This document shows positions 993 to 53,645 of a stretch of DNA of 64,000 nt, piece after piece; within the stretch, counting starts at the first letter, position 1, and every line of letters starts with the position of its first letter. The notes beneath the pieces were generated by a model, which was not told where the DNA came from, made no database searches, and worked only from the letters and a program-made list of their open reading frames with translations. The translations under genes and the position numbers were made by a program. Origin of the DNA: Candidatus Woesearchaeota archaeon (GTDB taxonomy: Archaea > Nanobdellota > Nanobdellia > Woesearchaeales > UBA9642); the NCBI GenBank assembly GCA_026002815.1, contig BPGB01000001.1, forward strand, positions 54,490-118,489, given 5' to 3'.

Positions 993-3900
993 AAAAAGCA
1001 ATTTCAGAATCAGAAGTTGAAGAAGCAGCACTTGATATTCTGCGAGAATTAGGCTGGACTATTCTTCATGGTCCTGACATTTCCGAAGGTGGAAGTAATG
1101 AAGAAAGAAAATATAGTGAAGTTGTTTTAGTGAATAGATTAAGAAATGCGCTTGAAAGAATCAATAAAGACATTCCAGAAGAAGCGATACAAGAAGCAAT
1201 AAAAAAAGTTCTCAGGACAGACAGCCAGAACCAAATCATCAACAACCAACAATTCCATAAAATGGTTGTTAATGGCGTTGATGTTGAATACAAAAAGAAT
1301 GGGGAAATAAAAAATGATAAAATCTGGCTTTTTGATTTTAAGAATATAAAAAATAATGAGTTTCTTGCAGTAAAACCAATTTACAATCATTGAAGAAAGA
1401 AAAAACAGAAGACCGGACATAATCTTATTTGTTAATGGTTTGCCATTAGTTTTAATAGAATTAAAGAATCCTGCTGATGAGAATGCAACAATCTGGTCAG
1501 CATTTAATCAGTTTGAAACATATAAACAGCAGATTCCATCAGTTTTCAGGTTTAATGAAATTCTTGTAATAAGTGACGGGTTAGAAGCAAGAGCCGGAAC
1601 CCTTACAAGCAATAAAGAAAGATTTACGCCATGGAAGACTATTGATGGAAAGAAGATGCCAAAAACTGCTCCTCAACTAGAAATTTTACTAAAGGGTATG
1701 TTAAATAAAGAGGTCTTAATGGATTTGATCAGGCATTTCATTGTTTTTGAAATAGATAAAGACAAGAGAGAAGGAAGTGTAAAAATAATAAAGAAAATAG
1801 CTGCATATCATCAATATAATGCAGTAAACAAAGCAGTGCAATCAACAATAAACGCTACAAAAAAAGATAAAAGAGCAGGAGTTGTCTGGCACACGCAAGG
1901 ATCTGGAAAAAGTTTAATAATGGTATTTTATACAGGAAAGTTGGTTTTACAGCCAGAACTGGAAAACCCGACAATAATTCTATTAACAGACAGGAATGAT
2001 TTAGATGATCAATTATTTGGAACTTTTAGCAGATGCCACGAACTGCTAAGGCAGGAGCCAAAACAAGCAGAATCAAGAGATGAAATAAAAGAATTGCTTA
2101 AAGTTTCATCCGGAGGAATAATATTTACAACAATACAAAAATTTTTGCCAGAAGAAAAAGGTAAAAAATATCCCCTTCTATCTGAAAGAAAAAATATTAT
2201 TGTCATAGCAGATGAAGCTCATAGAAGCCAATATGATTTTATTGACGGATTTGCAAAACATATACGGGATGCTCTCCCAAACGCCTCGTTTATTGGATTT
2301 ACAGGAACACCTATAGAAAAAGCAGACAGAAGTACGCCGGCAGTTTTTGGGAAATATGTTGATGTTTATGATGTTGAGCAGGCAGTAGAGGATGAAGTGA
2401 CTGTAAGGATTTTCTATGAAAGCAGATTAGCAAAACTAGAATTAAAACCAGAAGAAAGACCTAAAATAGATAAGGATTTTGAAGAAGTTACTGAAGGTGA
2501 AGAGACAGAACATAAAGAAAAACTAAAAAGCAAATGGGCAAGACTTGAAAAAATTGTAGGAAGCCCAAATAGAATCAAGAGAATAGCAAAAGATATAGTC
2601 AATCATTGGGAAGAAAGACTAAATGTTCTTGACGGAAAAGCAATGATTGTCTGCATGAGCAGGAGAATCTGCATAGATTTGCATAATGAAATCATCAAAT
2701 TAAAGCCAGAATGGTATAATAAAGATGATGATAAGGGAGTTTTAAAAGTGATAATGACCGGCTCTGCTTCTGATCCAGTTGACTGGCAGGAACATATAAG
2801 AACAAAAGACAGAAGAAAAGCCATTGGGGAAAGAATGAAGGATGCTTCTGACCCTCTAAAAATAGTTATTGTCAGGGATATGTGGCTTACCGGATTTGAT
2901 GTTCCGTCTTTACACACAATGTATATTGACAAGCCAATGAGAGGGCATGGTTTAATGCAAGCAATCGCCAGAGTAAACAGGGTTTTTAAAGATAAACCTG
3001 GTGGATTAATAGTAGATTATATTGGGATTGCTTATGAATTAAAGAAAGCACTATCTGAATATACTGCTGGAGATCGGAAAGAGACAGGAATACCACAAGA
3101 AGAAGCAGTTGCTCTTATGCAAGAAAAATACGAGATTGTGTGTGGTTTATTCCATAAATTCAATTATAAAAAATTCTTTACTGCAACAACCAAAGACAAG
3201 ATGAAAATAATTGCAGATGCTATAGAACATATTTTGAAGCAAGAAAAAGGAAAAGAAAGATTCTTAAAATATGTAAGTGAGCTGTCAAAAGCCTTCGCTC
3301 TTGCTGTTCCTCACGAAGAAGCTATCAAAATAAGAGATAATGTTGGATTTTTCCAGGTGGTAAGGTCAGCAATTGCTAAGAATACTTCAACAAAAATATC
3401 AGATAGAGAGGATTTAGAAACAGCAATAAAACAAATTATCTCAAAAGCAATAGTCTCGGATAGAGTTATAGATATTTTTGAAGCTGCAGGTCTAAAAAAG
3501 CCAGACATTTCAATTTTATCAGAAGAATTTTTGGAAGAAGTCAAAAACATGCCTCAAAAGAATCTTGCATTTGAAATGCTGAAAAAACTTCTCAATGATG
3601 AAATCAAAATACGTCACAAGAAAAATCTTGTTCAAGCAAGGTCGTTCGCAGAAATGTTGGATAAAGCGATTAAGGCATATACTAATAAGAATATTGAAAC
3701 CGCAGAGGTAATTGAGCAGTTGATTGAATTAGCAAAAAAGATGCAGAATGAAAATAAAAGAACCAAGGAGATGGGTCTAAGTGAAGATGAAGTCGCTTTT
3801 TATGATGCCCTAGCAGACCATGAAGGAGTTAAAGAAGTTATGGGAGATGAAAAATTAATGATTATAGCAAGAGAACTTGTTGAAAGTATACACAACTCTG

Positions 3901-4070
3901 TAACAATTGATTGGACTATGAGGGAGAATGTCCAAGCAGAGATGAGAGTTAAAGTCAAGAAAATTCTAAGAAAATATGGTTATCCTCCAGATAAACAGCA
4001 GAAAGCAGCGGACACAGTTTTAGAACAGGCAAAATTATTATGTAAAGATTGGGCAGAGGCACAATCTTAA
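989..4070 (+). pseudogene. hsdR: Type I restriction enzyme R subunit (HsdR), interrupted by a +1 frameshift in the A4 run at 1372-1375
   Basis: ORF 989-1393 is a typical HsdR N-terminus. The next frame is open from 1374 and reads [32 protein letters not shown] (PD-(D/E)xK core). SF2 motifs follow: [26 protein letters not shown]. The C-terminal region is HsdR-type ([12 protein letters not shown]). Confidence 0.85.
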
Positions 4071-4098
4071 GTTATTTTCTTATATTTAATTGTTTCGT

Positions 4099-4416
4099 CG
4101 CCACCTCCGTTATAGTTAAAATTGTCTCCTATCAGTTCGTGCCACTAAAATTTAATTGCATAGAACATCGCGATTAAGAGAAGTCGTGAGCGTAGCGAAA
4201 GATTTGGGTGAAGCGAGGTGCAACCGAGTGGAGTCGGCTAAGCCCTGTTATACGCGTTTTCTCGAACAGAAAACCGAGGTTTAGTGCAACTTCCCGAAGG
4301 GAAACCGAAGAGTTAAATTTTAGTGGCAATCGTTCAATAAAGTGAAAACAGTAAGACATCGAGAACATATATCAAGGAGACAATTTTAATCAGTCGTTTC
4401 GTTAGGGAGAGGGGCG
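4099..4416 (+). ncRNA. Candidate structured non-coding element A (about 318 nt, GC-enriched), immediately 3' of hsdR
   Basis: Three nested long-range complementarities. First, 4099-4107 pairs with 4409-4416 (8 bp plus a bulge). Second, 4116-4130 pairs with 4375-4389 (15 bp, perfect). Third, 4141-4155 pairs with 4313-4327 (15 bp, perfect). There is also an internal GAA-loop hairpin at 4291-4303. Strand assignment is tentative. Confidence 0.45.
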
Positions 4417-4444
4417 TGTTTTTGGTTCTTTTTTTGAAAAAGAA
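4417..4444 (+). terminator. Oligo-T tracts (T5 at 4419-4423, T7 at 4429-4435) plus hairpin TTCTTTTT-TTG-AAAAAGAA (4426-4444). Candidate archaeal termination signal after element A.
   Basis: Read directly. Archaeal intrinsic termination uses oligo-T runs. Confidence 0.35.
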
Positions 4445-4477
4445 GGCAGTTTGAAGGGGGGCGTCGTTTCAGTAATA

Positions 4478-4486
4478 TTTATAAAG
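4478..4486 (+). promoter_or_regulatory. TATA-like box TTTATAAAG about 30 nt upstream of the RHH ATG
   Basis: AT box at the expected distance for a short-leader or leaderless archaeal transcript. Confidence 0.35.
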
Positions 4487-4514
4487 CTGTGTAAATATTT
4501 ATTATTAGATTACT

Positions 4515-4661
4515 ATGGGAAGCAAGAACATAACTCTAAAAGTTGATGAAAAACTATACAATGCCTATAAGGAATACTGCAAAAAGAAAGGCTTAATTAT
4601 ATCAAGGCAGTTTGAGATTTTCGTTGAGCAACAACTTAAAAAAAGTGATAAAAATGGATAA
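4515..4661 (+). CDS. Small ribbon-helix-helix (CopG/Arc-like) protein, 48 aa. Absent from the ORF track because it is under 60 aa.
   Basis: Own translation: MGSKNITLKVDEKLYNAYKEYCKKKGLIISRQFEIFVEQQLKKSDKNG. The pattern is beta-strand (ITLKVD), helix, G, helix. The ORF overlaps the methyltransferase ATG (4654) by 8 nt. Confidence 0.6.
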   Translation: MGSKNITLKVDEKLYNAYKEYCKKKGLIISRQFEIFVEQQLKKSDKNG

Positions 4662-7600
4662 TGATTTAGAATTAAGAAAGGAGATACATGAAAATTTAAG
4701 AAAAATTAAGACAGCAAAGGATATTTTTAGCCTGCTTAAGAAATTAAACTATCCTGAAAATGTGGTTTTTGATATATCCTCAAAAAGAAAAAAATCTACT
4801 TTTGACTTCAAAAAAGAAGATGAACAAAGAATAAAAGAAATTTATTCTGTATTAAGTTTTGATGAAAAGCTTCATGTTTTTCTCTTGGAAGTCTCAACTT
4901 TAACACCCTCTTTTATAAGGTCTGTAACAAGCACATTTGATAAGCAATATCTTCATTTTTTATTGATATTTTCTTCTGACTATTCAGAAATTGTTTTTGT
5001 CTTTCCCAATCGTGAAAAAATCGAGGCTGGAAAACACAAACTGAAACTAACAAAACTAATAGTGAACAGGGATGAAATCCATTATACAGATATTCAAACA
5101 CTCTCAAATATATCTTACGAAGGGGAAGGTAATTGGAGGGACATCTGGAGAAAATGGAAAAAAGCATTCAGCGTTGAGAGAGTAACAGAGGATTTCTTTG
5201 AAGATTATAAAAACATCTTTTTTACATTAAGGAACGAGTTGAACAAGCAAAGTGTTCCTATAAAAGAATCTCACGAGTTTACCTTGCAATTTCTAAACAG
5301 GATAATGTTCATTTATTTCATTTCAAAAAAGAAGTGGCTGGAGCATCCCAGATTTATGGAATGGGTTTGGACTGCTTATAAGAAGCTGAATAAATATGGA
5401 TCTGATGAGTTTTACGAAAAATGGCTTAGACAGATTTTCTTTAAAGCGTTTAACAACCGCTCCAATGAATTGGCAGGATTGCCAGGAGATATTATAAAAG
5501 CAATATCAAATTCTCCTTATTTAAATGGAGGACTATTCAGAGAAAATGGATTGGATAACCTTAAAATCAAAATCAGCGATAAGATGTTTGAGAGAATCTT
5601 TGAGTTCTTTGAGAAATACAATTTTACAATAAAAGAAGACATGCCTCTTGAGCAAGAGGTTGCGGTTGATCCTCAAATGATTGGATATGTTTATGAATCT
5701 TTGGCTAATGTCGCTGAAGAGATTTATGATAGAAATGATTTAGGTATATTCTATACTCCTAGAGTTGAAGTGGATTTCATGTGTAGGCGTTCCTTGGTTG
5801 AGTATCTTTCAAAGCACCTACCAGAAGTTCCAAAAGAGAAATTTTATCATCTGATATTTGATTTGCCTGAAGAGAAGGAAAAAATAGAAAAATGGTTTAG
5901 TGAAAATAATTTATGTAGTAAATTAGAAGAAATTTTAGATGAACTATCTGTTGTTGATCCTGCTTGTGGCTCAGGTGCTTTTTTGGTTGGAATGCTAAAT
6001 GTTCTTGCAGAAGTTTATAGATCAATCAACAAACACTTGAATAGAAATTTAACGGATTTTCAATTGAAAAATAGGATTATCCAGTATTCGCTTTATGGAG
6101 TTGATGTAATGACTTGGGCAATACATGCTGCAGAGCTAAGACTATGGCTTCAATTAATTGTCGAAACTGAATTCAAAAAAGAAGAGTTAAGAAAACATCC
6201 TTTACTGCCAAACTTGAACCTTAATTTAAGGATTGGAGATTCATTAGTTCAAGAAATTGGCGGCATTAGTTTTAATTTAAAAACTAATAACTTGAAACCT
6301 CATTTGAAAAAGAAGCTTGAAGACCTGAAACAAGAGAAAAGAAAATACTTTGAAAATTCTCCAACAGCAAAATTCAAAACACCTGAAGAAGTCAAAGCAG
6401 AAGAGATAAGGCTTTTTGAAGAGATTATTGATGAAAGGATTGAGAGTTTAGAAACTGATATTGAAGTTTTAGAAAATTCTGAAAAGAAAAAAGAAAAACA
6501 AACAGGACTCTTTGGCTCAGAAATAAATATTGAAGCAAAAAACATAAAAAAAGAAAAAGAGGAGATTGAAAAAATTGAAAAGAAAATACAAGATAATAAG
6601 AAAGAAATTGAAAATTTAAAAAAAGTAAAAGAATTGCTTAAAGAACCAGATAAAAAACCATTTGTATGGGATATTGATTTTGCTGAAATATTTGCCGAGA
6701 AAAATGGTTTTGATATTGTTATAGGAAATCCGCCTTATGTCAGGCAGGAAATGATTTCCCCGCCAAATAAGTTAAAGTCAGAAGTTACACTTGAAGACAG
6801 AAGAGAGTATAAAGAAAAATTGATTAATTCTGTAAAAAAGGTTTTTCCTGTTGTAGAGAATATTGACAAGAAAAGCGATTACTACATTTATTTTTATTTT
6901 CATGGTTTAGGTTTATTGAATGAAAAAGGAACATTCTGCTTTATCACAAGCAATTCTTGGCTTGATGTTGGTTATGGAAAAGAGTTGCAGGAATTTCTAT
7001 GCAAGTATGTTCCAATTTTAGGAATTTATGACAATCCAAAAAGAAGTTTTGCACATGCAGATGTTAACACAATAATTGCTTTATTTGGTGCTCCAAAGTT
7101 TGCGGAAGAAAAAACAATTCATGGTTTTAAGATTTCAGGAAATGAAAATAACTGGCCAATGCTAAATCATACTGCAAAGTTTGTAATGTTCAAGAAGCCA
7201 TTTGAAGAAGTTGTTAATTCAAAAAATCTTATTGAAATTGAAAACATTAAAGTTGAAACAAAAGGCGAAGGTATTACAGAATTAGTGAAAAATGTTAAAA
7301 AAACAGATGATTACAGATGTTTTCCAATATTACAAGGTGATTTGTTAGAAGATGGCTGGGAATATCCTGAAAATTATCAAAAAGAAAAAGGCAGATTTAA
7401 AGCTGGTAGTTATGAAGGCAACAAATGGGGCGGTAAATTTTTAAGAGCACCAGATATTTTTTATACGATTTTGGAGAAGGGTAAAGGAAAACTTGTAAGA
7501 TTAGGAGATATTGCTGAAGTGCGTCGTGGCTTTACGACAGGAGCGAATGAGTTTTTTTATCTTCCCAGCAAGTATTTTGATATAAAAGAAGAAGAAAAAT

Positions 7601-8412
7601 ACTACAAACTAATTCCAAAAGAAGAAGGTTTGCCAAATGATATTAAAATAGAGAAAGAATTTTTGAAGCCTGTAATAAAAAGCCCCAGAGAATGTAAAAC
7701 AATTCTAATAAATCCAAATGATTTGAAATACAAAGTATTTATGTGCCATAAAACAAAAAATGAGTTGAAAGGAACAGGTGCGTTGAAATATATTGAATGG
7801 GGTGAGAACGTTAAAGTTGAAATAAAACAAGGTTCAGATGAAGGTAAAAAAATAAAAGGATTTCAAAACATTTCAACAGTAAAGAACAGAGAGCTGTGGT
7901 ACTCGCTCCAATCTAATTTTGGAGCTAATATTTTTATACAAATGTCATTTAATGACACATTCCCTTTTTATTATTCCCAGAAAAAAATGCTAGCTGATGC
8001 TCGTCTATATGAAATAAAGATTAAAGATTTTAATTCTGAGCAATTAGCCTTATCTCTGAACTCTACATTATCAGTTATATTTATGGAACTTTTCGGAAGA
8101 TCTAATCTAGGTGAGGGAGCATTAGATTTCAAAGTTTATGAGGCTAAAAAAATATTATTTATAATAAAAAATATAAGAAATAATAAAATTTTACGCAGAA
8201 AGCCAAATCCAATCTTCACCGAACTCGGCTTCGATCCAAGTAAACCAATCCGTGAGCAAGAGCCAAAACCCTTGCCTGATAGAGCTGAGCTTGACAAAAT
8301 TATTTTTGATGAGCTTGGTTTAAGTGAGGAGGAAAAAAAAGAGGTTTATTGGGCTGTTGCTGAGTTGGTTAAGCAAAGGATTGATAAAGCCAAAAGTGTT
8401 AAAAGAGATTAA
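4654..8412 (+). CDS. Large gamma-class N6-adenine DNA methyltransferase of the Eco57I/type IIG/PglX-like family with its own specificity domain, 1252 aa from ATG 4654
   Basis: Motif I is VVDPACGSGAFLVG and motif IV is VIGNPPYV. Family-typical blocks are AFSVERVTEDFFEDY and FLNRIMFIYFISKKKWL. A K/E-rich coiled-coil linker is present. C-terminal VRRGFTTGANEFFYL resembles a TaqI-like specificity domain. The track start at 4612 is a TTG; ATG 4654 is preferred. Confidence 0.8.
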   Translation: MDNDLELRKEIHENLRKIKTAKDIFSLLKKLNYPENVVFDISSKRKKSTFDFKKEDEQRIKEIYSVLSFDEKLHVFLLEVSTLTPSFIRSVTSTFDKQYLHFLLIFSSDYSEIVFVFPNREKIEAGKHKLKLTKLIVNRDEIHYTDIQTLSNISYEGEGNWRDIWRKWKKAFSVERVTEDFFEDYKNIFFTLRNELNKQSVPIKESHEFTLQFLNRIMFIYFISKKKWLEHPRFMEWVWTAYKKLNKYGSDEFYEKWLRQIFFKAFNNRSNELAGLPGDIIKAISNSPYLNGGLFRENGLDNLKIKISDKMFERIFEFFEKYNFTIKEDMPLEQEVAVDPQMIGYVYESLANVAEEIYDRNDLGIFYTPRVEVDFMCRRSLVEYLSKHLPEVPKEKFYHLIFDLPEEKEKIEKWFSENNLCSKLEEILDELSVVDPACGSGAFLVGMLNVLAEVYRSINKHLNRNLTDFQLKNRIIQYSLYGVDVMTWAIHAAELRLWLQLIVETEFKKEELRKHPLLPNLNLNLRIGDSLVQEIGGISFNLKTNNLKPHLKKKLEDLKQEKRKYFENSPTAKFKTPEEVKAEEIRLFEEIIDERIESLETDIEVLENSEKKKEKQTGLFGSEINIEAKNIKKEKEEIEKIEKKIQDNKKEIENLKKVKELLKEPDKKPFVWDIDFAEIFAEKNGFDIVIGNPPYVRQEMISPPNKLKSEVTLEDRREYKEKLINSVKKVFPVVENIDKKSDYYIYFYFHGLGLLNEKGTFCFITSNSWLDVGYGKELQEFLCKYVPILGIYDNPKRSFAHADVNTIIALFGAPKFAEEKTIHGFKISGNENNWPMLNHTAKFVMFKKPFEEVVNSKNLIEIENIKVETKGEGITELVKNVKKTDDYRCFPILQGDLLEDGWEYPENYQKEKGRFKAGSYEGNKWGGKFLRAPDIFYTILEKGKGKLVRLGDIAEVRRGFTTGANEFFYLPSKYFDIKEEEKYYKLIPKEEGLPNDIKIEKEFLKPVIKSPRECKTILINPNDLKYKVFMCHKTKNELKGTGALKYIEWGENVKVEIKQGSDEGKKIKGFQNISTVKNRELWYSLQSNFGANIFIQMSFNDTFPFYYSQKKMLADARLYEIKIKDFNSEQLALSLNSTLSVIFMELFGRSNLGEGALDFKVYEAKKILFIIKNIRNNKILRRKPNPIFTELGFDPSKPIREQEPKPLPDRAELDKIIFDELGLSEEEKKEVYWAVAELVKQRIDKAKSVKRD

Positions 8413-8413
8413 A

Positions 8414-10060
8414 ATGAGCGAAGAAAAAAATAGATCAAAATCTCATGTTATCTTTAGCACAAGAGATAAACTAAATTCCGATAGCGAATACTATGGTAAA
8501 ATATACAAGATAAAGAATCTTACTAAGACAATCGTTCTCGTTGCTTCCTTTCTTCTAGTATTAATGCTAGCTATTTTTGTGTTTAATTCTAATCCTGATT
8601 TTAGTAATAAAGATAATTTAAGATATTTATTTAGTACATCTGCACAAACACTTGGAGCAATTTTTGGAATAATAATAACAATTACCTTTATGATTATACA
8701 AGTGAATATTCAAAAATACGGGCAGAAAATTTATTCATTCTTAATTAAAAGTAGATTTATTTTATTTTATACATTTTTGGCTTTATTATCCATATTACTT
8801 TCGTTAGTGTCTATACTATTTGTAGAGAAAATATCTCTATTTAAAATAGTGCTTGACAATTTTAGTTTTACTTTTTTAACATCGTACTTACACATTTTTA
8901 CATCTGTTCTTACAGGAATGTCTTTGATTTTTTTACCTTATTTTATCTACGAATTAATCTCCAAATTAAACATCATTAATTATCTAAGATACCTTTATGA
9001 AAACACAGTTGATGCGATCAACAAAAAAAATATAGATAAAGTTGAAAATAATCTATCTTTGATATTGGGCGTATTAAATAACGGTATTAGAGAAAGAGAT
9101 AGAGATACAATAAAGGAAGGTATTGAAACTTCACACGATTTGCTAAAATTTGCGATATGTAATCAGAAAGCAATGAATGATCTATTATTGCACGCTGGGA
9201 AACCAGAAGGAATGTTTAATTATAGGAGTAATTGGTTTGAAGATGAAATTTTGAGTAGTCTCGAGTCTTCTTTTAAAATATTATTAGAAACACGACAATA
9301 TAATTCTGCGAGATATTTAGTCAAAGGACTTAACTCATGTGCAACCGAAACACTGAATTTTGATTACCATGAGAGTATAAGAGGAAGAATAATAAAAACA
9401 TATCAAAAGTTTATTCTCCTATCATTAAAGGAAAATGAGTTACAAGAAGAAATTATACAAGAATTTAGGTTATTTTTTGAAAGATCCCTTTGTTTAGAAA
9501 AATCTGATTTTAGATTAATCATTAATGACTTGTTTGAAGAAACGTTCGTCATTGAATTGATAAAGAATCGTCCAGATATTATTGAAAAATTGATTTCAAC
9601 TTACTTTTATACCATAAAAAGAGGAATTCCATTTTGCAAGATAGATAATGAGAATGTAGTCGCTTTAGTTGAAGAAATAGGTAGCATAGTATCTATTTGT
9701 AATAAGTTAAAGCAAATAAAAGCTATTGACTCACGTCTCGCCTTATTTTTTAGTAATAAACTAAATGAACAAATCTCTGACATCGCATACCTCTTATCAT
9801 TATTCGTATTTTCAAAAAAAGATATAGAAAACTCAAAAAGGTGTAGGAAAATAATTAGAAGTTTTTTAAACGTAAACTCCATGAATAAAAAAATAGAAAA
9901 AATCGTAACAGATAAAAACGACTGGAAACCACGATTTAACTATTTGGTTCACCATCTATTTACTGAGATCAAAGAAGATAATGGAAAAACTGATTTTATT
10001 TTCAAACATAAAAATGTAATTAAACTTGCAAAAAATTTTAATAAAATGACGGTGAAATGA
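8414..10060 (+). CDS. Multi-pass membrane protein (4-5 N-terminal TM helices plus about 330-aa helical soluble domain), possibly DUF2254-like
   Basis: ATG 8414 lies one nt after the methyltransferase stop. TM segments include TIVLVASFLLVLMLAIFVF, LGAIFGIIITITFMIIQV, FILFYTFLALLSILLSLVSILFV and FTSVLTGMSLIFLPYFIY. The family assignment is from memory only. Confidence 0.55.
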   Translation: MSEEKNRSKSHVIFSTRDKLNSDSEYYGKIYKIKNLTKTIVLVASFLLVLMLAIFVFNSNPDFSNKDNLRYLFSTSAQTLGAIFGIIITITFMIIQVNIQKYGQKIYSFLIKSRFILFYTFLALLSILLSLVSILFVEKISLFKIVLDNFSFTFLTSYLHIFTSVLTGMSLIFLPYFIYELISKLNIINYLRYLYENTVDAINKKNIDKVENNLSLILGVLNNGIRERDRDTIKEGIETSHDLLKFAICNQKAMNDLLLHAGKPEGMFNYRSNWFEDEILSSLESSFKILLETRQYNSARYLVKGLNSCATETLNFDYHESIRGRIIKTYQKFILLSLKENELQEEIIQEFRLFFERSLCLEKSDFRLIINDLFEETFVIELIKNRPDIIEKLISTYFYTIKRGIPFCKIDNENVVALVEEIGSIVSICNKLKQIKAIDSRLALFFSNKLNEQISDIAYLLSLFVFSKKDIENSKRCRKIIRSFLNVNSMNKKIEKIVTDKNDWKPRFNYLVHHLFTEIKEDNGKTDFIFKHKNVIKLAKNFNKMTVK

Positions 10061-11214
10061 TGTCAAAAAAATCAATCACTGTTGAGGTGAATCCAGAAGT
10101 CTTAAAGTGGCTTAGGGAAAGATCTGGGTGGAAGATAGAAGAAGTAAGCAAAAGGCTAAGTACTACTGTTGAGAATGTAACTGAATTTGAAGCTGGAGGA
10201 AAATCACCTACACTAACACAATTGAAGATTTTATCAGGATTGTTTAAATGTCCATTGGCTGCTTTCTTTTTATCTGAGCCAAAAGAAGAAAAGCCTTTGC
10301 CTAAAGATTACAGATTTCTACCGGATAAAACAAATATCTTTGATAAAAAAACAATTTTGGCAATAAAAAAAGCAAGAGACTTGCAAAAGATAGGCAAAGA
10401 ACTTTCATTAAACATAAGATATGAAACAAAAACAAAAGTTGAGAAGGTCAAACTATCTGAAAATCCTGATTTGATTGCAAAAAGATATAGAGAACTATTC
10501 AATCTTGACTTTGAGAAGCAAGCAAAATTCAAGGATGCTTATAAGCTATTTAATTATCTCAGGGATGTTCTTGAAAATATAAATATTCTAGTTTTTCAGT
10601 TTTCAATGCCAATTGAAGATGCAAGAGGCTTCACACTAACAGATGAGTCGCCTGCTGTTATTGTTGTAAACTCCAGAGACAGCATTGAAGCAAGACTATT
10701 TACTCTCATGCATGAATTTGGACATATTATTCTGGGAGAAACAGTTATAGATATACCTGAAAGGTCGCTGGCAATCAGAGATAATATTGAAAGATGGTGC
10801 AATTCATTCGCCTCTTCCTTCCTATTGCCTACACAAGTAGCAAAAGAGATATTTAAAGAAAAACAAACAAAATTAACTGATACACAAACATTAAACAACC
10901 TATCTAGAAAATACAAGGTAAGCAAAGCAGTGCTTCTAATCAAAATGCTTAACTTAGGATATATCTCGCAATCGGATTTTGACGCTGTTGTTGAAAGATA
11001 TGTTCCAAAAGAAACCGAAAAAAAAGTTGAGCGAGAAAAAAAAGGAATAAGCTTAGCTTCTGATACGAGGTGCCTTTCTGAGATGGGCAACAAATTCATT
11101 TCACTTGTTGCAAACAACTTTGACAATAATTTCATAACATACTCAGATGCTTTGAGTTATCTATCAATTAAATCGAAGAACTTCGAGAAGGTTCTAGCTA
11201 AGGCGAGAAAATGA
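10057..11214 (+). CDS. XRE-type HTH fused to ImmA/IrrE (COG2856) zinc metallopeptidase, 385 aa
   Basis: N-terminal HTH region is LKWLRERSGWKIEEVSKRLSTTVENVTEFEAGGKSPTLTQLKILSGLF. HExxH motif is LMHEFGHIILGE. The ATGA start overlaps the upstream stop. Confidence 0.8.
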   Translation: MMSKKSITVEVNPEVLKWLRERSGWKIEEVSKRLSTTVENVTEFEAGGKSPTLTQLKILSGLFKCPLAAFFLSEPKEEKPLPKDYRFLPDKTNIFDKKTILAIKKARDLQKIGKELSLNIRYETKTKVEKVKLSENPDLIAKRYRELFNLDFEKQAKFKDAYKLFNYLRDVLENINILVFQFSMPIEDARGFTLTDESPAVIVVNSRDSIEARLFTLMHEFGHIILGETVIDIPERSLAIRDNIERWCNSFASSFLLPTQVAKEIFKEKQTKLTDTQTLNNLSRKYKVSKAVLLIKMLNLGYISQSDFDAVVERYVPKETEKKVEREKKGISLASDTRCLSEMGNKFISLVANNFDNNFITYSDALSYLSIKSKNFEKVLAKARK

Positions 11215-11702
11215 CATCAAATTGCTATATCATAGATTCATCGTCATTGATAGAGTTAAACAGGCACAACCCAATTGATGTGTTCCCTAGTGTATGGAAA
11301 AATATGGAGTCATTAGTTAACAAAAGTTTGCTTATAGCACCTAAAGAAGTACTTAATGAAATAAAAAAAAAAGACGATCAGTTAGCAAAATGGGCCAAGA
11401 AACAAAACAATCTTTTTAAGGATCCGACACCAAAACAAATAGAAATACTAAAGGATATATTGAAAAACTATCCTGCATTGGTAAAACTAGATAGGAAATA
11501 CAATGCTGATGCATGGGTTATTGCATTAGCCATTGAAATGGCTTCGGGTTCACAAAAAACATTATTACCTATAAAAAGAATAGTCGTAACAGAAGAAAAA
11601 TTAAGGGGAAATAAGATTAAAATACCTCTTGTTTGTCAAAAATATAGTATAGAAACGATCGACATCATAGACATGTTTAGAATAGAAGGATGGAAGTTTT
11701 AA
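11211..11702 (+). CDS. DUF4411-like PIN-fold protein (usual partner of ImmA/IrrE peptidases), 163 aa
   Basis: N-terminal YIIDSSSLIEL is a PIN-like acidic motif. Size and position directly after a COG2856 gene fit the known pairing. ATGA overlap with the upstream gene. Confidence 0.6.
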   Translation: MTSNCYIIDSSSLIELNRHNPIDVFPSVWKNMESLVNKSLLIAPKEVLNEIKKKDDQLAKWAKKQNNLFKDPTPKQIEILKDILKNYPALVKLDRKYNADAWVIALAIEMASGSQKTLLPIKRIVVTEEKLRGNKIKIPLVCQKYSIETIDIIDMFRIEGWKF

Positions 11703-11778
11703 AAAGTAGAAACTCTTTGGATTATATTAATAACATTTATCATCAGAAACACGATTAAAGCTCATCCAAACAAAAACA

Positions 11779-11815
11779 TTTAAATATATGGTAATACAAC
11801 CATAATATTATGGTA
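11779..11815 (+). promoter_or_regulatory. TATA-like box TTTAAATATA, palindrome ATGGT-N6-ACCAT (11788-11803) and a repeated ATGGTA at the start codon. Candidate operator of the second MNT-HEPN cassette.
   Basis: Read directly from the sequence. Confidence 0.4.
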
Positions 11816-12385
11816 AAAAACCATAGCAAACTTATAAGAACATTATTAGAAAACCAAGATAAAGAACTTAACATATTAGATTTATCCAGATATTCTAAAA
11901 TTGACTACAAAAATGTTTACAACATCATTAAGGATTTAGAAAAAGAAGGTTTAGTTGAAACAAATGTCTTTGGGAAAACAAAAAGAGTTATTCTTAACAA
12001 AAAAGTTCATCCTTTGATTTTCGAAGCAGAATACGAAAGAAGAAAATACTTATTAAAAAATAAAGACTTTTTAGTTTTACAAAAAAAACTTTCCTCATTA
12101 GAATTCCCATTTATAGCATTGCTTTTCGGCTCTTATGCTAAAGGAAATCAAACTAAACATTCTGATATTGACATATTAATTATTTGTGAGGAAAAAAGAG
12201 AAAATCAAATGCAAGAAGTTTTAGATTTTTTTCCATTAAAAATCCATCCAACAATTGTTAATTTTGAAGATTTTATAAAAATGTTAAAAACAAAAGAATT
12301 CAATGTTGCAATAGAAGCAGTTAAAAATAACATAATTTTAATAGGTATAGAAGATTATTACAGGTTGTTAGAAAATGTTAAGTGA
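11810..12385 (+). CDS. wHTH-fused minimal nucleotidyltransferase (second MNT), 191 aa
   Basis: wHTH segment is LDLSRYSKIDYKNVYNIIKDLEKEGLVE. NTase motif is LLFGSYAKGNQTKHSDIDILII. Confidence 0.8.
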   Translation: MVKNHSKLIRTLLENQDKELNILDLSRYSKIDYKNVYNIIKDLEKEGLVETNVFGKTKRVILNKKVHPLIFEAEYERRKYLLKNKDFLVLQKKLSSLEFPFIALLFGSYAKGNQTKHSDIDILIICEEKRENQMQEVLDFFPLKIHPTIVNFEDFIKMLKTKEFNVAIEAVKNNIILIGIEDYYRLLENVK

Positions 12386-12902
12386 AAAAAGAATAAAAGA
12401 AGCTGAAAGTAATGTGAATAAATATTTGAAAGAAGGGCTTTTGAAAAAATCAGATTTTAATAAACAAATTTTAGATATATTAAAGAAAAACGCAGATGAA
12501 AGTTTGGAAGTTGCAATTTTCCTTAACAAAAATAACAAATCCTCTCTTTGGATTATTGTAGTTTCATATTATTCTATGTTTTATTTGGCAAATGCTTTAT
12601 TGTACAGATTAGGTTATAAAGTTGGAGACAAAATTGCGCATAAAGTAACAGCAGATGCATTAATGATTTTTGCAAGAGAAAAAATTAAAGATGCTTTAAT
12701 AGAAGGATATGAAGAAATTAGAGATGAAGCATTAGCCAAAATGAAATCAGATGAATTAATTGAATACTTTGATTTTGAAAGAAGAAAAAGAAGTTTTATT
12801 CAATACAATACACCGGAAGAAATAAAAATATCAAAAGTTAAAACTTCATTAGAAAGAGCTAAAGAATTTATGTTTCAAATAAGTAAATTGCTTGAGGAAT
12901 AA
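12375..12902 (+). CDS. HEPN-domain protein (second copy), 175 aa
   Basis: Helical protein that overlaps the MNT gene by 11 nt. ERRKRSFIQYN sits at the HEPN motif position and again ends in Tyr rather than His. Its stop lies 2 nt before the PLD-SNF2 ATG. Confidence 0.65.
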   Translation: MLSEKRIKEAESNVNKYLKEGLLKKSDFNKQILDILKKNADESLEVAIFLNKNNKSSLWIIVVSYYSMFYLANALLYRLGYKVGDKIAHKVTADALMIFAREKIKDALIEGYEEIRDEALAKMKSDELIEYFDFERRKRSFIQYNTPEEIKISKVKTSLERAKEFMFQISKLLEE

Positions 12903-12904
12903 AA

Positions 12905-15900
12905 ATGCCCATACCAAAAGAAATAATAGATAACAGCGAAGGGAACAAGTTGATTAGTTTCCTGAATAACGCTTTAAAGGAAAATCCGAAGACAAAGCTT
13001 GACATAGCAACTGCTTTCTTCAACATAGAAGCCTTTGCAATGATTAAAGACAGCCTTAATGGCGTTGAAAGATTCAGGCTTCTTCTTGGCAAAGCTCCTG
13101 AAATACAGAACGAAAAAACACTTGGAGATGTTCTTTTGCAGGAAATAAGAAAAGAAGTCGAAGGCTTTGATTTGACAAAAGATTCAGATCAAACAGTAAA
13201 ATTGTTTATTGAATTCCTAAAAAGAAAAAATGTTGAAATAAGATTATTTGAGAAATTCCTTCACGGTAAGGCATATATATTTGATGATAGAATAGTTATC
13301 GGTTCTTCAAATTTTACTTCTGCAGGTTTAACAAGATATGGAGAATTAAACACTTGGCAGTTAAAATCACATGCAGATCATACAAGAAAAGAATGGTTTG
13401 AAAAATTCTGGGTAGAATCTGTTGATTTTAAAGATAAATTAATAAAACTTTTAGAAGAGTCAAGGTTTGGTAGCAAAGAATATACTCCTTACGAAGTTTA
13501 CATTAAAACCTTATACGAACTGCAAAAAGAGGATATAAAAGAAGAGCAGAAAGAGGAAAAACCAAGAGGTTTGCCAGAAACAAAGGTCAACTTAGCACAA
13601 TTCCAAGAAGATGCAATCGCAAGAATCTGGACTAGGATGAGAAAATATGGTGGCTGTATAGTTGCTGATTCTGTTGGATTGGGGAAAACTTGGATTGCTA
13701 AAAAGATTCTTGAGAAAATAGGATATTATGAAAGAAAGAATATTTTGATTATTTGTCCTGCTCAGCTAAGAGAGATGTGGAGAAAAGAATTGAAAAAAAT
13801 TGATGTTAAAGAGAACATTCTTTCACAGGAGGATTTGGCATCGGAGAAATATTTGGAAAAAGCAAAAAAAGCTTTGGGTGGACGGTTTGATAATGTTGAA
13901 TTAATTGTAGTTGATGAAAGTCACAATTTCAGAAATCCTTTGTCTAATAGATGGGAGAACTTTTTTACCTTGGTTAATGACCATATTGCCAAAAAGCAAA
14001 GACCAAAAATGCTTTTCCTTACAGCAACACCAATAAACAACACGCCTTGGGATCTATACTGGCAGATTATGCTTCTTGTACTAATGGACAGATCAGCATT
14101 TATCAAGGAAAACATTCCAGATTTGTTCAAATTCTTCAAACAGGCAAAAGAAAATCCTTCTTTATTGAATGACTTGCTAAATGAGATTTCCATAAGAAGA
14201 ACAAGAGACTACATAATAGAAAATTACCCAGATGCATTTATTATAGTTGAGTTGCCAAACGGAGAAACAAAAGAGCAAAAGATAATTTTCCCAGAAAGAG
14301 TTTTAGAAAATATCAATTATCAGTTAGATAAAGCATACAAAGGAATGTATAAGGAAATTTCTGACACAATAACAGAAAAGCTAATAATGGCGTATTATAA
14401 GATTCTGGAATACAGAAAAGAAGGTTTGAAGAGCGAAGAAGAACTACTTGCATTAGGTAGAATGATAGCCATAGGTGGAATATTTAGAACAATTCTTCTC
14501 AAGAGACTGGAGAGTAGTGTTGATGCTTTCAGAAAAAGCATATCTAATCATATAAAATTCTTAGAAAAGCTAAAAACCTATCTAAAATCTGGAAAGCTTC
14601 TTACAAAAGAAACTTATTTCAAATATTTAATGAGCCTAGATGAGGAACTGGAAGAAGAGGATTTGAAGGATATTCTTAAAGAATTCAAAATCAAAGAATA
14701 CAATGCAAATAAATTGTTTGAGGATATAGATACAGATATTAACCTGCTTAAAGTAATTTTGGAAAAAGTAAGTAAAATTACACCAGAAGAAGACTCTAAG
14801 CTCAAGGTATTGAAGGATAGACTTATAGAGTTGTCAAAAGATGGTCAGATTGTTCTATTTACTTACTATGCAGACACATTGAACTATATTTATGAAGAGA
14901 TACGACGCGATAAGAGATTTTCAAAGCTTAAAATTGAAGCCATATCTAGTTCAGGATTAACGAGTAAAAATCCGCAACAAAGAGAAAAAATAGTTGAAGA
15001 TTTCTTTTCAAAGAAAATTGATATATTATTAAGTACGGATGTGTTGTCTGAAGGACAGAATCTGCAATCTGCCAAATATTTAATAAATTACGACTTGCAT
15101 TGGAACCCTACAAGAATGATTCAAAGGGCAGGAAGGATTGACAGAATTGGCTCCCCCTACAAAAAAATATTTGTATATAATTTCTTTCCTGAAGATGAGC
15201 TCGAAGAATTATTAAAGCTTGTTGAGATTTTGCAGAATAAAATAATCGACATTGACAAATCCGTTGGTTTAGACCAGACTATACTTGGCGAAGAAATACA
15301 TCCGAAAGTATTTGGAATAATCAGGCATATTAGAAGCAAAGATGGTAAAATATTCGCAGAACTAGAGCAAGACGCTTTTGGTGGTGGGGAGAGATTTTAT
15401 CAACCTCTCAAAGACTTTTTAAAAAATAAAGGTGTAGAAGAACTTGAAAAAATGCCTTTAGGAATTTATAGTGGCCTAAAGAAAAACAAAATTTCTGCAA
15501 TATTTCTCTATTACAAATATGGAAATGACTTTCATTTCTGGTATATATACGATGTAAGTAATAGTTCAATTCTCACAAATAAGACAGATATATTGGGGTT
15601 TATAAGTTGTAAACAAAATGAAGAGAGAGTTATTCCTGACTTCTTTGAGAAGGTATACGAAGTTAATAAGATCGTAGTTGAAGATATTGAAAGAATGTAT
15701 AAAGAAATAGAATTGAGCTATACACAAGACTCAAAGTTAAAAGAACTGAGCAAATCCAGAAGCACTAAATTTGTAAAAAACATAATAAATGAAATAGAAC
15801 TTCAGATAGAATCTTATCTTAATGAATTTCCTGATGACGATTCAATAGAAAAAATCTGGGAGCCTATAAAAAACAAACTTATCTCCATCCCACAAACAAA

Positions 15901-16078
15901 AAAGAGACTCCAAAATCTAAGGAGAATATGGAGACAGTACAGAAAAGATAACGATTGGAGAAAAATGATTAAAGAATTAAGTGACTTTTTAATAGAAAAA
16001 GGAATTTTCAAGAAAGCAATTATTGAACCATTTGATAAAATGAAATTGAAATTGATTACTATTGATTTTATTTCGTAA
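12905..16078 (+). CDS. Phospholipase-D-family nuclease domain fused to an SNF2-family helicase/translocase, 1057 aa
   Basis: Single HKD motif FLHGKAYIFDDRIVIGSSNFTSAGL. SNF2 motifs are ADSVGLGKTWIA (I), VVDESHNFRN (II), LTATPINN (III), LSTDVLSEGQNLQ (V) and HWNPTRMIQRAGRIDRIG (VI). Confidence 0.85.
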   Translation: MPIPKEIIDNSEGNKLISFLNNALKENPKTKLDIATAFFNIEAFAMIKDSLNGVERFRLLLGKAPEIQNEKTLGDVLLQEIRKEVEGFDLTKDSDQTVKLFIEFLKRKNVEIRLFEKFLHGKAYIFDDRIVIGSSNFTSAGLTRYGELNTWQLKSHADHTRKEWFEKFWVESVDFKDKLIKLLEESRFGSKEYTPYEVYIKTLYELQKEDIKEEQKEEKPRGLPETKVNLAQFQEDAIARIWTRMRKYGGCIVADSVGLGKTWIAKKILEKIGYYERKNILIICPAQLREMWRKELKKIDVKENILSQEDLASEKYLEKAKKALGGRFDNVELIVVDESHNFRNPLSNRWENFFTLVNDHIAKKQRPKMLFLTATPINNTPWDLYWQIMLLVLMDRSAFIKENIPDLFKFFKQAKENPSLLNDLLNEISIRRTRDYIIENYPDAFIIVELPNGETKEQKIIFPERVLENINYQLDKAYKGMYKEISDTITEKLIMAYYKILEYRKEGLKSEEELLALGRMIAIGGIFRTILLKRLESSVDAFRKSISNHIKFLEKLKTYLKSGKLLTKETYFKYLMSLDEELEEEDLKDILKEFKIKEYNANKLFEDIDTDINLLKVILEKVSKITPEEDSKLKVLKDRLIELSKDGQIVLFTYYADTLNYIYEEIRRDKRFSKLKIEAISSSGLTSKNPQQREKIVEDFFSKKIDILLSTDVLSEGQNLQSAKYLINYDLHWNPTRMIQRAGRIDRIGSPYKKIFVYNFFPEDELEELLKLVEILQNKIIDIDKSVGLDQTILGEEIHPKVFGIIRHIRSKDGKIFAELEQDAFGGGERFYQPLKDFLKNKGVEELEKMPLGIYSGLKKNKISAIFLYYKYGNDFHFWYIYDVSNSSILTNKTDILGFISCKQNEERVIPDFFEKVYEVNKIVVEDIERMYKEIELSYTQDSKLKELSKSRSTKFVKNIINEIELQIESYLNEFPDDDSIEKIWEPIKNKLISIPQTKKRLQNLRRIWRQYRKDNDWRKMIKELSDFLIEKGIFKKAIIEPFDKMKLKLITIDFIS

Positions 16079-16107
16079 AGTTAAGACTCCCCTTCGTTTT
16101 TCGTACG

Positions 16108-16426
16108 TTCGTAAAAGCACCTGCCCGTTTCGTCAGAAAAATCTTTGGATGAAGCGAAGCGAAACCGCTTAACCAATGTTAGACTTTGTTTGCGAAGCAA
16201 ATTTAGTTATCTTTTTAGTTGTGAAGGTTAAGCGAAGGATTCGCTAGAAAAGCATAGCTTTTCTGCGCACCAAAAACCATTGGTTTTTGAGTGTTTCAGT
16301 TCCGTAAGCAAACTCCTCTCAAATTAGGGGTGGGTGGTTGGGAGGAAAGCCGAATTCTGAATTACGCCTAACATCTATTAAGCGTAATATTATTGTGTTT
16401 AATTGGAGGTTACGGTTTTTTACGAA
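16108..16426 (+). ncRNA. Candidate structured non-coding element B (about 319 nt, GC-enriched), immediately 3' of the PLD-SNF2 gene
   Basis: Nested complementarities are 16108-16116 with 16418-16426 (9 bp), 16118-16126 with 16328-16336 (9 bp including two G-U pairs on the plus strand) and 16166-16174 with 16226-16234 (9 bp). Local hairpins are at 16189-16201 (GAA loop), 16246-16264 and 16361-16387. It shares collinear sequence blocks with element A. Confidence 0.45.
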
Positions 16427-16462
16427 ATAAGTTTATAAATCTATATTTTTCATCTTATATTG

Positions 16463-16744
16463 ATGAATTATGAAGATATTCTTATGAACGAATGTAAACT
16501 TAAAGGTTATTTACAAAGGACGATACAGAAAATTATCGAAAATGCTGCTGTGAATTCAGGTATACGGAAAAGCATCACCCCACACACATTAGGGCATTCT
16601 TTTGCAACTCACCTAATAGAAAATGGTACTGATATTAGGTATATTAGGGATCTATTAGGTCATTCGGATATTAGTACTACATTAATTTATACAAAAGTTT
16701 CAAACAAGAATATATGTAAAATTAAAAGTCCATTGGATGATTAA
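16463..16744 (+). pseudogene. C-terminal fragment (about 93 aa) of a tyrosine recombinase/integrase (XerC/D-like)
   Basis: ITPHTLGHSFATHLIENGTDIRYIRDLLGHSDISTTLIYTKV matches box II (HxLRHxxAT...LLGH...Y). The N-terminal two thirds are missing and the conserved Arg is Gly. Confidence 0.75.
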
Positions 16745-29956: not shown

Positions 29957-30065
29957 GGGAGTGTAGCGCAGCTTGGATAGCGCGGCAGCCTTCTATTCAG
30001 TAAAAAATATTTTAAAAAACTGAAAAGTAAGCTGTAGGTCCGGGGTTCAAATCCTCGCACTCCCG
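29957..30065 (+). tRNA. tRNA-Arg(UCU) with a 34-nt intron at the canonical 37/38 position (intron 29996-30029)
   Basis: Folded by hand. Acceptor stem is GGGAGTG/CACTCCC and D-arm is GCGC/GCGC. Anticodon stem is GCAGC/GCTGT with loop CT-TCT-AA. T-arm is CGGGG-TTCAAAT-CCTCG. The intron contains hairpin TTCAGT...ACTGAA. Confidence 0.85.
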
Positions 30066-50594: not shown

Positions 50595-50666
50595 TGCGGG
50601 TATAGCCAAGCGGTAAGGCAGCCGCCTGCAGAGCGGCCATGCGGGGGTTCAAATCCCTCTACCCGC
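50595..50666 (+). tRNA. tRNA-Cys(GCA)
   Basis: Folded by hand. Acceptor stem is GCGGGTA/TACCCGC. Anticodon arm is GCCGC-CTGCAGA-GCGGC. T-arm is GGGGG-TTCAAAT-CCCTC. Confidence 0.88.
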
Positions 50667-50685
50667 TTAAAATTAGGAGGATAAA

Positions 50686-53320: not shown

Positions 53321-53645
53321 GTAGGGTAGTGCTTGGCTGTGGGTATCTTGCTGTAAAATGCAAGAGGCTCAGGAAAGTCCGTCCACATTAAACGGCCACA
53401 CGTGAAAGCGTGCTCGCTAATAACGAGGGCAACAGCACAGAAACGCAACCCATTACCGGTTGGAATGATTGGATATATCCTTAGGCGACTATGGATTGAT
53501 TCCTTGACGTCCCGGTATTGAGGATGAAACGGCTAGTCCTGGCTTGTGCAACTCTTGAAAGAGGCTTAGTTTAATGCCAAGAAAGTCGATTCCATGGCGT
53601 CATTGCAATGGATGACTTACAGAAGACGGCTTACAGCTACCCTAC
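53321..53645 (+). ncRNA. rnpB: RNase P RNA
   Basis: P1 pairing is GTAGGGTAG (53321) with CTACCCTAC (53637-53645). CR-I-like CAGGAAAGTCCG and CR-V-like ACAGAAGACGGCTTACAG are present. GC-rich island with a TATA-like TTTTAAAT box about 25 nt upstream. Confidence 0.88.

Follow-up and report, generated by a model that had tools for sequence, protein, structure and literature searches.

The DNA analysed here, which we call the window, is a stretch of 64,000 nucleotides from a Candidatus Woesearchaeota archaeon (contig BPGB01000001.1, positions 54,490 to 118,489). The window is AT-rich (29% GC) and archaeal; among its genes are those for an RNase P RNA of archaeal type and for a tRNA with an intron. 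Its first 16.4 kb form a defence island in which all genes are located on one strand. Two intergenic blocks of this island are the subject of this work: element A, with a GC content of 42%, and element B, with 39%. A preliminary description, made from the letters alone, had taken B for a diverged paralogue of A and both for functional RNAs. We describe them here as members of a family of structured elements that occupies more than 60 loci in archaea and bacteria. We think that A and B are probably worn recombination-site DNA hairpins at the cassette boundaries of an integron-like system, rather than RNA genes. The coordinates of the features are collected in Table 1; related loci are designated by L numbers.

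Table 1. Features of the defence island and of elements A and B (window positions; aa, amino acids; ORF, open reading frame; RHH, ribbon-helix-helix)
Feature	Position	Strand	Description
Split HsdR	989-1393 and 1440-4070	+	134 aa, N-terminal part of HsdR model; 876 aa, ORF begins at HSDR_N profile position 138
Element A	4092-4418	+	gap after HsdR stop (4070)
A, left arm block X'	4092-4155	+	C-rich arm 4092-4109, arm I2 4116-4130, arm I1 4140-4155
A-type site core	4155-4258	+	model R1: 26.3 bits, E 5.5e-05, many P1/P2 pairs broken
A core, 5' half		+	5' flank ATTGCATA; box GAAC 4163-4166; arm a CGCGATTAAGAG 4169-4180; AAGT; P3
A core, 3' half		+	junction TTTGGGTGAAGCGAGGTGCAACCGAG 4203-4228; arm a' TCGGCTAAGCCC 4234-4245; box TGTTATAC 4246-4253
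A-type extension	4256-4312	+	hairpin H5 4256-4274, then domain 2
A domain 2		+	stem S GGTTT/AAACC; conserved AGTGCAAC 4283-4290; hairpin H6 TTCCC-GAA-GGGAA 4291-4303
A, right arm block X	4313-4418	+	arm I1 4313-4328, arm I2 4375-4389, G-rich arm TTAGGGAGAGGGGCG 4402-4416
Hairpin GGTTCTTTTTTTGAAAAAGAAGG, second G-rich run, TATA-like box TTTATAAAG	4424-4486	+	ahead of RHH gene 4515-4661; same order in L048
Cargo between A and B	4515-16078	+	Pfam and NCBIfam searches
Element B	16108-16426	+	gap after stop (16078) of PLD+SNF2 helicase
5' part of B	16070-16143	+	ATTTCGTA, the family 5'-flank consensus, overlapping helicase stop
5' part of B, further items		+	repeated TTCGTA motifs; C-rich arm CACCTGCCC 16118-16126; GTTTC
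B-type site	16144-16238	+	model R1: 22.1 bits
B site, 5' parts		+	junction TTTGGATGAAGCGAAGCGAAACCG 16144-16167; arm CGCTTAACC 16166-16174; box TGTTAGAC 16177-16184
B site, 3' parts		+	hairpin TTTGC-GAA-GCAAA 16189-16201; returning arm GGTTAAGCG 16226-16234; CGAAGG
Two strong hairpins	16246-16264, 16271-16289	+	both absent from L004
G-rich arm GGGGTGGGTGGTTGGGAGG	16327-16345	+	G-rich module recurs in L004, L013
Compact hairpin, canonical attC-like geometry	16366-16415	+	GCCTAAC-ATCTA-TTAAGCG-loop-GTTTAA-TTGGAG-GTTACGG; just upstream of recombinase promoter
Internally deleted IntI-like tyrosine recombinase gene	16463-16744	+	94-codon ORF; N-terminal ..ECKLKGY fused to C-terminal 77 aa

The HsdR gene that precedes A is split; a frameshift or pseudogene could account for this, as could an enzyme made of two pieces. 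The cargo between A and B encodes an RHH protein, an Eco57I/MmeI-type methylase (1266 aa) and a 578-aa protein of no assigned family. It further contains genes for an ImmA/IrrE-helix-turn-helix protein, a DUF4411 protein, a nucleotidyltransferase/HEPN pair and the PLD+SNF2 helicase. The island holds two pairs of nucleotidyltransferase (MntA-like) and HEPN-like genes in total (77-992 and 11810-12902, plus strand).

Taken alone, the pairwise evidence that relates A to B is weak. Of the four collinear blocks proposed in the preliminary description, blastn matched block 2 alone (29 nt, 79% identity, E=0.2), and the local Smith-Waterman score was reached in 9 of 500 dinucleotide shuffles. A collinear global alignment as good as the observed one was obtained in none of 500 shuffles, and in one of 500 with block 2 removed. 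In direct comparisons of A with B by blastn and MAFFT the similarity was too weak to decide. Block 2 is nevertheless true homology: the 24-nt motif derived from it, TTTGGNTGAAGCGANGNGNAACCG, occurs in 36 stretches of species-representative genomes versus about one expected by chance, an estimate based on the size of the database and on the 20 bases that the 24-mer fixes. A degenerate block-2 pattern added one viral locus (three extra matching bases on the viral contig), and a 20-mer specific for A-type elements led to 26 further metagenome loci. The archaeal hosts of the motif are Woese-, Pace-, Nano-, Aenigm- and Altiarchaeota, Methanosarcinales and Syntrophoarchaeum; the bacterial hosts include many Spirochaetia, bacteria of the candidate phyla radiation (CPR), Nitrospirae, Desulfobulbaceae and others. 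A literature search for the motif string returned no paper with a match.

The motif is the junction of a three-way hairpin of about 90-180 nt that is closed by TAAC/GTTA boxes. In its commonest form the site reads ATTKCRTA-TAAC-GTTTC-[10-bp stem]-GAAG-[variable hairpin]-TTTGG-N-GAAG-[variable hairpin]-GGA-N-CC-[stem]-T-GTTATRY. The apex is this junction, whose core (GAAG, TTTGGNTGAAG and GGAACC) is near-invariant across phyla and domains, while the variable hairpins can be as small as a 3-nt loop or hold insertions of more than 60 nt. The box consensus RTATAAC ... GTTATRY is one position off RYYYAAC/GTTRRRY, and some copies carry GCCTAAC and GTTAGGC. Covariation is strong. In an alignment of 15 sequences 93% of the cells were paired and 12 pairs had double changes, which none of 500 shuffles equalled. 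Among 82 model-aligned copies 94% were paired and 20 of the 26 pairs had double (compensatory) changes, versus 33-44% in controls with slid partners. Stem loops are often C-GNA-G triloops and a GCGAAGC mini-hairpin is recurrent. Both are exceptionally stable as DNA and are hallmark mini-hairpins of DNA. The heptamer GTGCAAC is found twice per A-type element, once in the extended P4 hairpin and once as the invariant bulge of domain 2 (window 4217-4224 and 4283-4290, for example), and may be a protein-binding motif.

Searched with the covariance model, the window and 37 loci yielded 90 copies at E up to 1, with a maximum of 9 copies per 8 kb. All copies of a locus lie on one strand in 21 of the 21 loci that have at least two. 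Most open reading frames between consecutive copies run against the folded strand (54 antisense versus 8 sense), and in the arrays the copies are spaced like genes or cassettes. IntI-like genes accompany eight arrays at seven loci (L004, L005, L023, L026, L027, L029 and, twice, L065), in addition to the deleted copy of the window. In every case, the window included, the recombinase gene is located downstream of the sites and sense to them. Same-strand arrays, antisense reading frames and a recombinase gene downstream and sense together make up the geometry of an integron. At six loci the tyrosine recombinase has about 30% identity with IntI1 along more than 300 residues, as judged with an approximate IntI1 probe sequence. 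Among proteins of solved structure, VchIntIA, an integron integrase, comes closest to the L023 protein (2A3V; 172 bits versus 152 for XerA).

The recombinase gene of the window is a remnant of such a gene. Its best NCBIfam match is the integron integrase family TIGR02249 (101.5 bits, versus 89 for XerD). The N-terminus of the fragment matches that of the intact L065 protein and the remainder matches its last 77 residues; about 150 internal codons are lost. The catalytic arginine is lost as well, since the HxxR motif reads HTLGH, with glycine in place of arginine. Relatives of the fragment are 77-90% identical and often disrupted too, and disruption of this gene seems common in DPANN genomes. 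The routes differ: L065 has an in-frame TAG, L068 a transposase upstream, and the window copy an internal deletion. The L065 case (3521-4324) is a close relative of the window fragment whose in-frame TAG falls on a conserved tryptophan codon. We considered an integrase split in the manner of SSV and rejected it, because the many relatives of 105-107 aa begin at the same internal methionine of variously disrupted genes.

The boxes of the sites resemble breakpoints of DNA. The TAAC/GTTA boxes mark crossover-like breaks of homology. At L008 a 1.77-kb insertion sequence (IS) with a DDE transposase and 11-bp terminal inverted repeats (GAGGCTGTCGC) has inserted twice (834-2602 and 4049-5817), in the GTTA boxes of two different sites and with a GTT duplication each time. 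An IS110-family element with a DEDD transposase replaces the 3' box of two sites on one Spirochaete chromosome (L016 4931-6540 and L036 1024-2633). In this it resembles members of IS1111, which are known to insert at one end of attC (PMC11187229). Because DDE and IS110-family insertions both target it, the GTT box is a hotspot. Complementary cassette ends of 14-24 nt, often nested, are present in L010, L021, L024, L031, L045 and L062.

Individual cassettes of other loci deserve mention. L026 carries tandem repeats of about 434 nt (3895-4938 and 7190-7798), each mostly one 175-nt site with long P3/P4 insertions; these are near-empty cassettes. Directly upstream of the B-type site of L006, an open reading frame (46-714) joins the N-terminus of HsdM to the last 63 residues of the HsdR C-terminal domain and looks like a deletion product within a type I restriction-modification cassette. 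A tie of A-type sites to a large methylase was discarded, as the 1263-aa reading frame of L013 is unrelated to the 1266-aa methylase of the window.

Element A looks like a decayed site between two cassettes. Its 5' arm (CGCGATTAAGAG) resembles those of L019 and L022 and its 3' arm (TCGGCTAAGCCC) those of L048 and L009. The hairpin is chimeric, with arms of two lineages, and therefore its main stem P2 cannot close. It is plausible that these arms were brought together by recombination within the shared junction. The A-type extension is conserved in about 20 A-type loci, with a variable H5, a covarying 9-bp stem, the invariant AGTGCAAC and H6. L022 and L051 are near-identical from the junction via the 5' box-side arm to the end of domain 2, after which they diverge. 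Stem S and H6 covary, as in CTGAATTTT/AAAATTCAG, TTGATTTTT/AAAAATCAA and GCCCG/CGGGC. The outer arms have a different nature. Arms I2 and I1 of block X' are perfect 15- and 16-nt complements of the corresponding arms of block X, a match that none of 300 shuffles equalled. The key to these arms is the metagenome locus L048, which is 77% identical to window 4202-4468 over 279 nt, with similarity that extends through the promoter into the RHH gene. Here the partners of the I1 and I2 arms of A are located 7 kb downstream, after the last gene of the cargo (a type III restriction-modification system, a C5-methylase and an ATPase), and the next site core follows immediately 3'. The C-rich stretch of L048 is likewise at the far end. 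Since the arms of L048 flank 7 kb of cargo, the nested "helices" of A are the X' of one cassette facing the X of the next. X' marks the end of the HsdR-bearing cassette and block X the start of the following one. Judged from this arrangement, the repeat unit is core, domain 2, arm block X, cargo and arm block X'.

Element B is of another subtype. A match to the family model is found, with neither a TAAC box nor a 5' P2 arm in B. The stem arm returns downstream instead of upstream (CGCTTAACC with GGTTAAGCG). An exact-arm regular expression for more B-type copies found L004, L006 and the window only. The closest relative of B is L004 of Methanosarcinales (85% identity over 114 nt, plus a second block), in which the B-like element has a MunI restriction gene, divergently oriented, on one side and an intact recombinase gene on the other. 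The C-rich arm of L004 reads CGCCCGCCC and can still pair with GGGTGGGTG. In B, L004 and L065 a compact box-spacer-stem hairpin is found just upstream of the recombinase TATA box; the architecture of L065 (CTTAAC-ACCTA-TTAAACG-11 nt-CGTTTAA) is the same as that of the window, and L004 has it in part. This compact hairpin may be the equivalent of an attI or attC site, and B is the native region upstream of the internally deleted IntI-like gene. A contig of the Logan collection, DRR290133_6084 (L001), is identical to the window over 6.5 kb and ends at 16439, 13 nt past B. This end suggests a repeat, or a strain-level or population breakpoint, between B and the recombinase gene.

These data allow us to revisit what had been said about A and B. 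Every string quoted for them is present where it was reported. Both elements were said to follow a translocase stop directly and to precede a TATA box. This holds in the window, where TATA-like boxes lie 3' of both elements (4478-4486 for A, 16432-16440 for B), and it is no feature of the family, in which the gene ahead of a relative encodes MunI, a SIR2-STAND protein, an acetyltransferase or something else. The common size of about 319 nt does not characterise the family either; A and B are two different subtypes and not duplicates. That both belong to one superfamily of structured elements is borne out by their matches to the family model, further homologues are numerous, compensatory stem changes abound and the folded strand is indeed the plus strand. 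Block 3 had been mis-matched: its hairpin in A is H6 of the second domain, and its hairpin in B occupies the position of H5, right after the GTTA box. Blocks 1 and 4 are genuine complementary C-rich and G-rich arms; the longer arm pairs of A (I1, I2) are inverted repeats at cassette ends. For B three helices of 9 nt had been proposed, which alone are at chance level (108 of 300 shuffles). The third (16166-16174 with 16226-16234) has compensatory changes in L006, L017, L024 and L048; the first is absent from L004, and the second is kept there merely via one-sided, wobble-compatible changes. The G-rich run of B, for which a G-quadruplex had been suggested (GGGG-T-GGG-TGGTT-GGG-A-GG), has just three tracts of at least three G.

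How such a system might work can be outlined as follows. On the plus strand a site consists of a TAAC box, a short bulge, a 10-bp stem, the three-way junction with its two variable hairpins, the returning stem and a GTTA box. The molecule that folds is most likely single-stranded DNA. Folded sites would then be exchanged at the box, the putative position of the crossover, by a short IntI-like tyrosine recombinase whose gene lies at the array end, and exchange would move genes between sites as cassettes. In the window this system appears decayed. A is unable to close, and the arms of its outer "helices" belong to neighbouring multi-gene defence cassettes, whose ends are complementary. B combines a B-type site with the compact attC-like hairpin, upstream of the decayed recombinase gene.

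Several observations weigh against this account of A and B as recombination sites. The window itself has just two copies, 12 kb apart, both with broken stems, and all genes of the cargo are sense to the site strand, the minority orientation of the family that is shared by L048 and L065. The four full-length recombinases tested (L004, L023, L026, L027; 265-294 aa) score 181-223 bits versus a TIGR02249 cut-off of 265, about equal to their scores with the archaeal XerA model. The IntI-specific insertion, which contacts extrahelical bases, is missing in all four, and TIGR02249 was matched in two pieces (1-174 and 237-305 of 315); the L023 protein has about 15 residues where 2A3V has 180-237. On the side of the sites, no clear canonical extrahelical bases were found: most P2 stems are perfect and one bulged base occurs in some copies only. 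The spacer is asymmetric, with GTTTC (5 nt) opposite a single T. On the motif strand G.T pairs outnumber A.C pairs (67 versus 34), which fits a folded bottom strand or an RNA alike, and a near-invariant junction with stems of variable length is a pattern usual in structured RNAs. The part of the supplements of PMC9668308, a paper on archaeal integrons, that was available contained neither the motif nor accessions of the family.

The alternative closest to the preliminary description is that the motif strand is transcribed into structured non-coding RNAs; in one version, the RNA would regulate or guide the adjacent recombinase like the bridge RNAs or seekRNAs. The strong covariation, the conserved junction with stems of varying length and the wobble pairs that favour the motif strand would suit an RNA well, and so would the arrangement in B, L004 and L005, where the recombinase gene comes directly after an element of the same orientation. 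A and B also fold better than shuffled sequences, on both strands (z -2.9 to -3.8). Yet Rfam (Rfam 15) gave no hit for A or B at the gathering threshold, and noise alone at E up to 10. The arrays of up to 9 copies and the excess of antisense reading frames put most copies antisense to their neighbours and far from a recombinase gene. Loops are often of the DNA type and not GNRA or UNCG, the boxes act as DNA breakpoints and IS targets, and the outer helices of A are 7 kb apart in L048. We therefore consider the conclusion that these are functional RNAs unsupported, and this alternative unlikely. The organisation in arrays, the antisense reading frames, the recombinase linkage, the boxes and the loops instead point to recombination-site DNA.

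A and B might also be non-autonomous transposable elements with long terminal inverted repeats, similar to miniature inverted-repeat transposable elements and mobilised by a transposase, that came to lie beside a recombinase gene by chance. The nested perfect inverted repeats of A would fit, complementary ends flank cargo in many loci, and many contigs break at such elements, as seen at 16439 and in the many relatives on short contigs. Against this, we saw no target-site duplications around A or B, and copies are same-oriented and regularly spaced between genes instead of scattered. The tyrosine recombinase is linked consistently and in fixed orientation, the arms in L048 flank cargo and not the core, and the transposases found belong to insertion sequences that landed in sites. 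This makes mobile elements of such a kind quite improbable here. That the resemblance of A and B is due to chance, or that both are relics of a degraded protein-coding gene, we regard as hardly credible. Such a view could draw on the pairwise blastn result, on the chance-level helices of B and on a 64-aa minus-strand reading frame inside A. But the motif defines a whole family, both elements match its model, and close full-length relatives exist (L048 for A, L004 for B). Short reading frames are all that A and B contain, and conservation runs along the stems and not along codons. For this reason we rejected a degraded coding gene, an origin that the preliminary description had listed among the outcomes that would undo its proposal.

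The RNA genes of the window lie elsewhere. The archaeal RNase P RNA (53321-53645, plus strand; RF00373, 126 bits) has several lineage-specific insertions. The tRNA at 29957-30065 (plus strand), with a 36-nt intron, was found by Rfam and missed by ARAGORN, whose sole tRNA in the window is a tRNA-Cys(GCA) at 50596-50667 (plus strand). The tRNA scan revealed no tRNA near A or B.

If A and B are worn recombination sites, there are consequences for annotation. In AT-rich DPANN genomes an intergenic block that is rich in GC and folds well should not be taken for an RNA gene by default; here such blocks lie at the cassette boundaries of a defence island. The related loci point to a large class of cassette sites, apparently not described before, with a conserved three-way junction and linked IntI-like recombinases that lack the IntI-specific domain. 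It is present in archaea and bacteria alike and has restriction-modification and other defence genes as cargo. If the recombinases act on the hairpins, the evolution of integron integrases from Xer-type enzymes becomes testable, as does the movement of multi-gene defence modules between archaea and bacteria. It is conceivable, though we hold this tentatively and with more doubt than conviction, that the sites and the short IntI-like recombinases constitute a distinct integron-like system across domains. Its recombinases would be a lineage closest to integron integrases yet without their defining domain, its substrate a three-way-junction hairpin in which a sequence-specific core replaces the extrahelical bases, and its cassettes multi-gene defence modules with long complementary ends. 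The system would then be ancestral to the classical integrons or a parallel branch, common to DPANN archaea, relatives of methanogens, CPR bacteria and Spirochaetes.

Integrons in archaea are not new. Archaeal integrons and clusters of attC sites lacking an integrase (CALINs), including those of Nanoarchaeota, have been published by Ghaly et al. 2022 (PMC9668308), and between archaeal attC sites and their counterparts in Spirochaetota, Nitrospirota and Desulfobacterota the identity can reach 95-100% (PMC9668308). The family described here has much in common with them. Its members are imperfect palindromes closed by AAC/GTT boxes, with a strand-specific fold and GAA-type triloops, and form same-strand arrays at cassette spacing with most reading frames of the related loci on the other strand. 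They take IS110/IS1111-family insertions at one end, occur in Nanoarchaeota and are shared between archaea and the same three bacterial phyla. The tyrosine recombinase gene diverges from the array, and the motif strand is in the role of the attC bottom strand. The likeness is less complete for the two elements of the window. The family forms a one-strand hairpin from imperfect inverted repeats, whereas in A the P2 arms are mismatched and in B such a hairpin arises via the downstream arm only. Of the boxes, A has GAAC ... TGTTATAC, B has TGTTAGAC at the 3' side without a 5' box, and the compact hairpin at 16366-16415 has GCCTAAC ... GTTACGG. There are also clear differences between the family and attC. 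A near-invariant 24-nt three-way junction is found where the terminal structure of attC is sequence-variable, the spacers measure 5 nt and 1 nt instead of about 5 nt on each side, evident canonical extrahelical bases are absent and the box is GTTATRY instead of GTTRRRY. A-type sites possess a second domain, also conserved, that lies beyond the boxes, the two ends of a cassette often complement each other over at least 14-24 nt, and the cassettes of the window are multi-gene and sense to the site strand.

The recombinases can be compared with two groups of enzymes. With IntI they share the C-terminus DIR..LLGH...SPLD and the location of the gene, which lies at the array end and is sense to the folded strand. 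Among solved structures IntI is the nearest relative, and among families it gives the best match or shares first place. They differ from IntI by their short length and the reduced region of residues 180-237. In length and domain layout they equal XerA, whose model they match with scores close to its cut-off. Unlike the sites here, the dif sites of Xer enzymes, also those of Xer-dependent dif modules, are 28-bp double-stranded sequences and not covarying hairpins in arrays. Moreover, the bacterial hosts would use XerC/XerD, yet they carry an extra IntI/XerA-like gene beside the arrays. The structured non-coding region that adjoins a recombinase gene, in sense orientation, in B, L004 and L005 recalls the bridge RNAs and seekRNAs of IS110/IS1111 elements. 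Those elements encode DEDD enzymes and not tyrosine recombinases, and their RNA is present once per element and not in arrays between unrelated genes; an Rfam match is lacking here. Since the recombinases lack the IntI-specific domain and the sites differ from attC, we call this system an integron-like variant and not a canonical integron.

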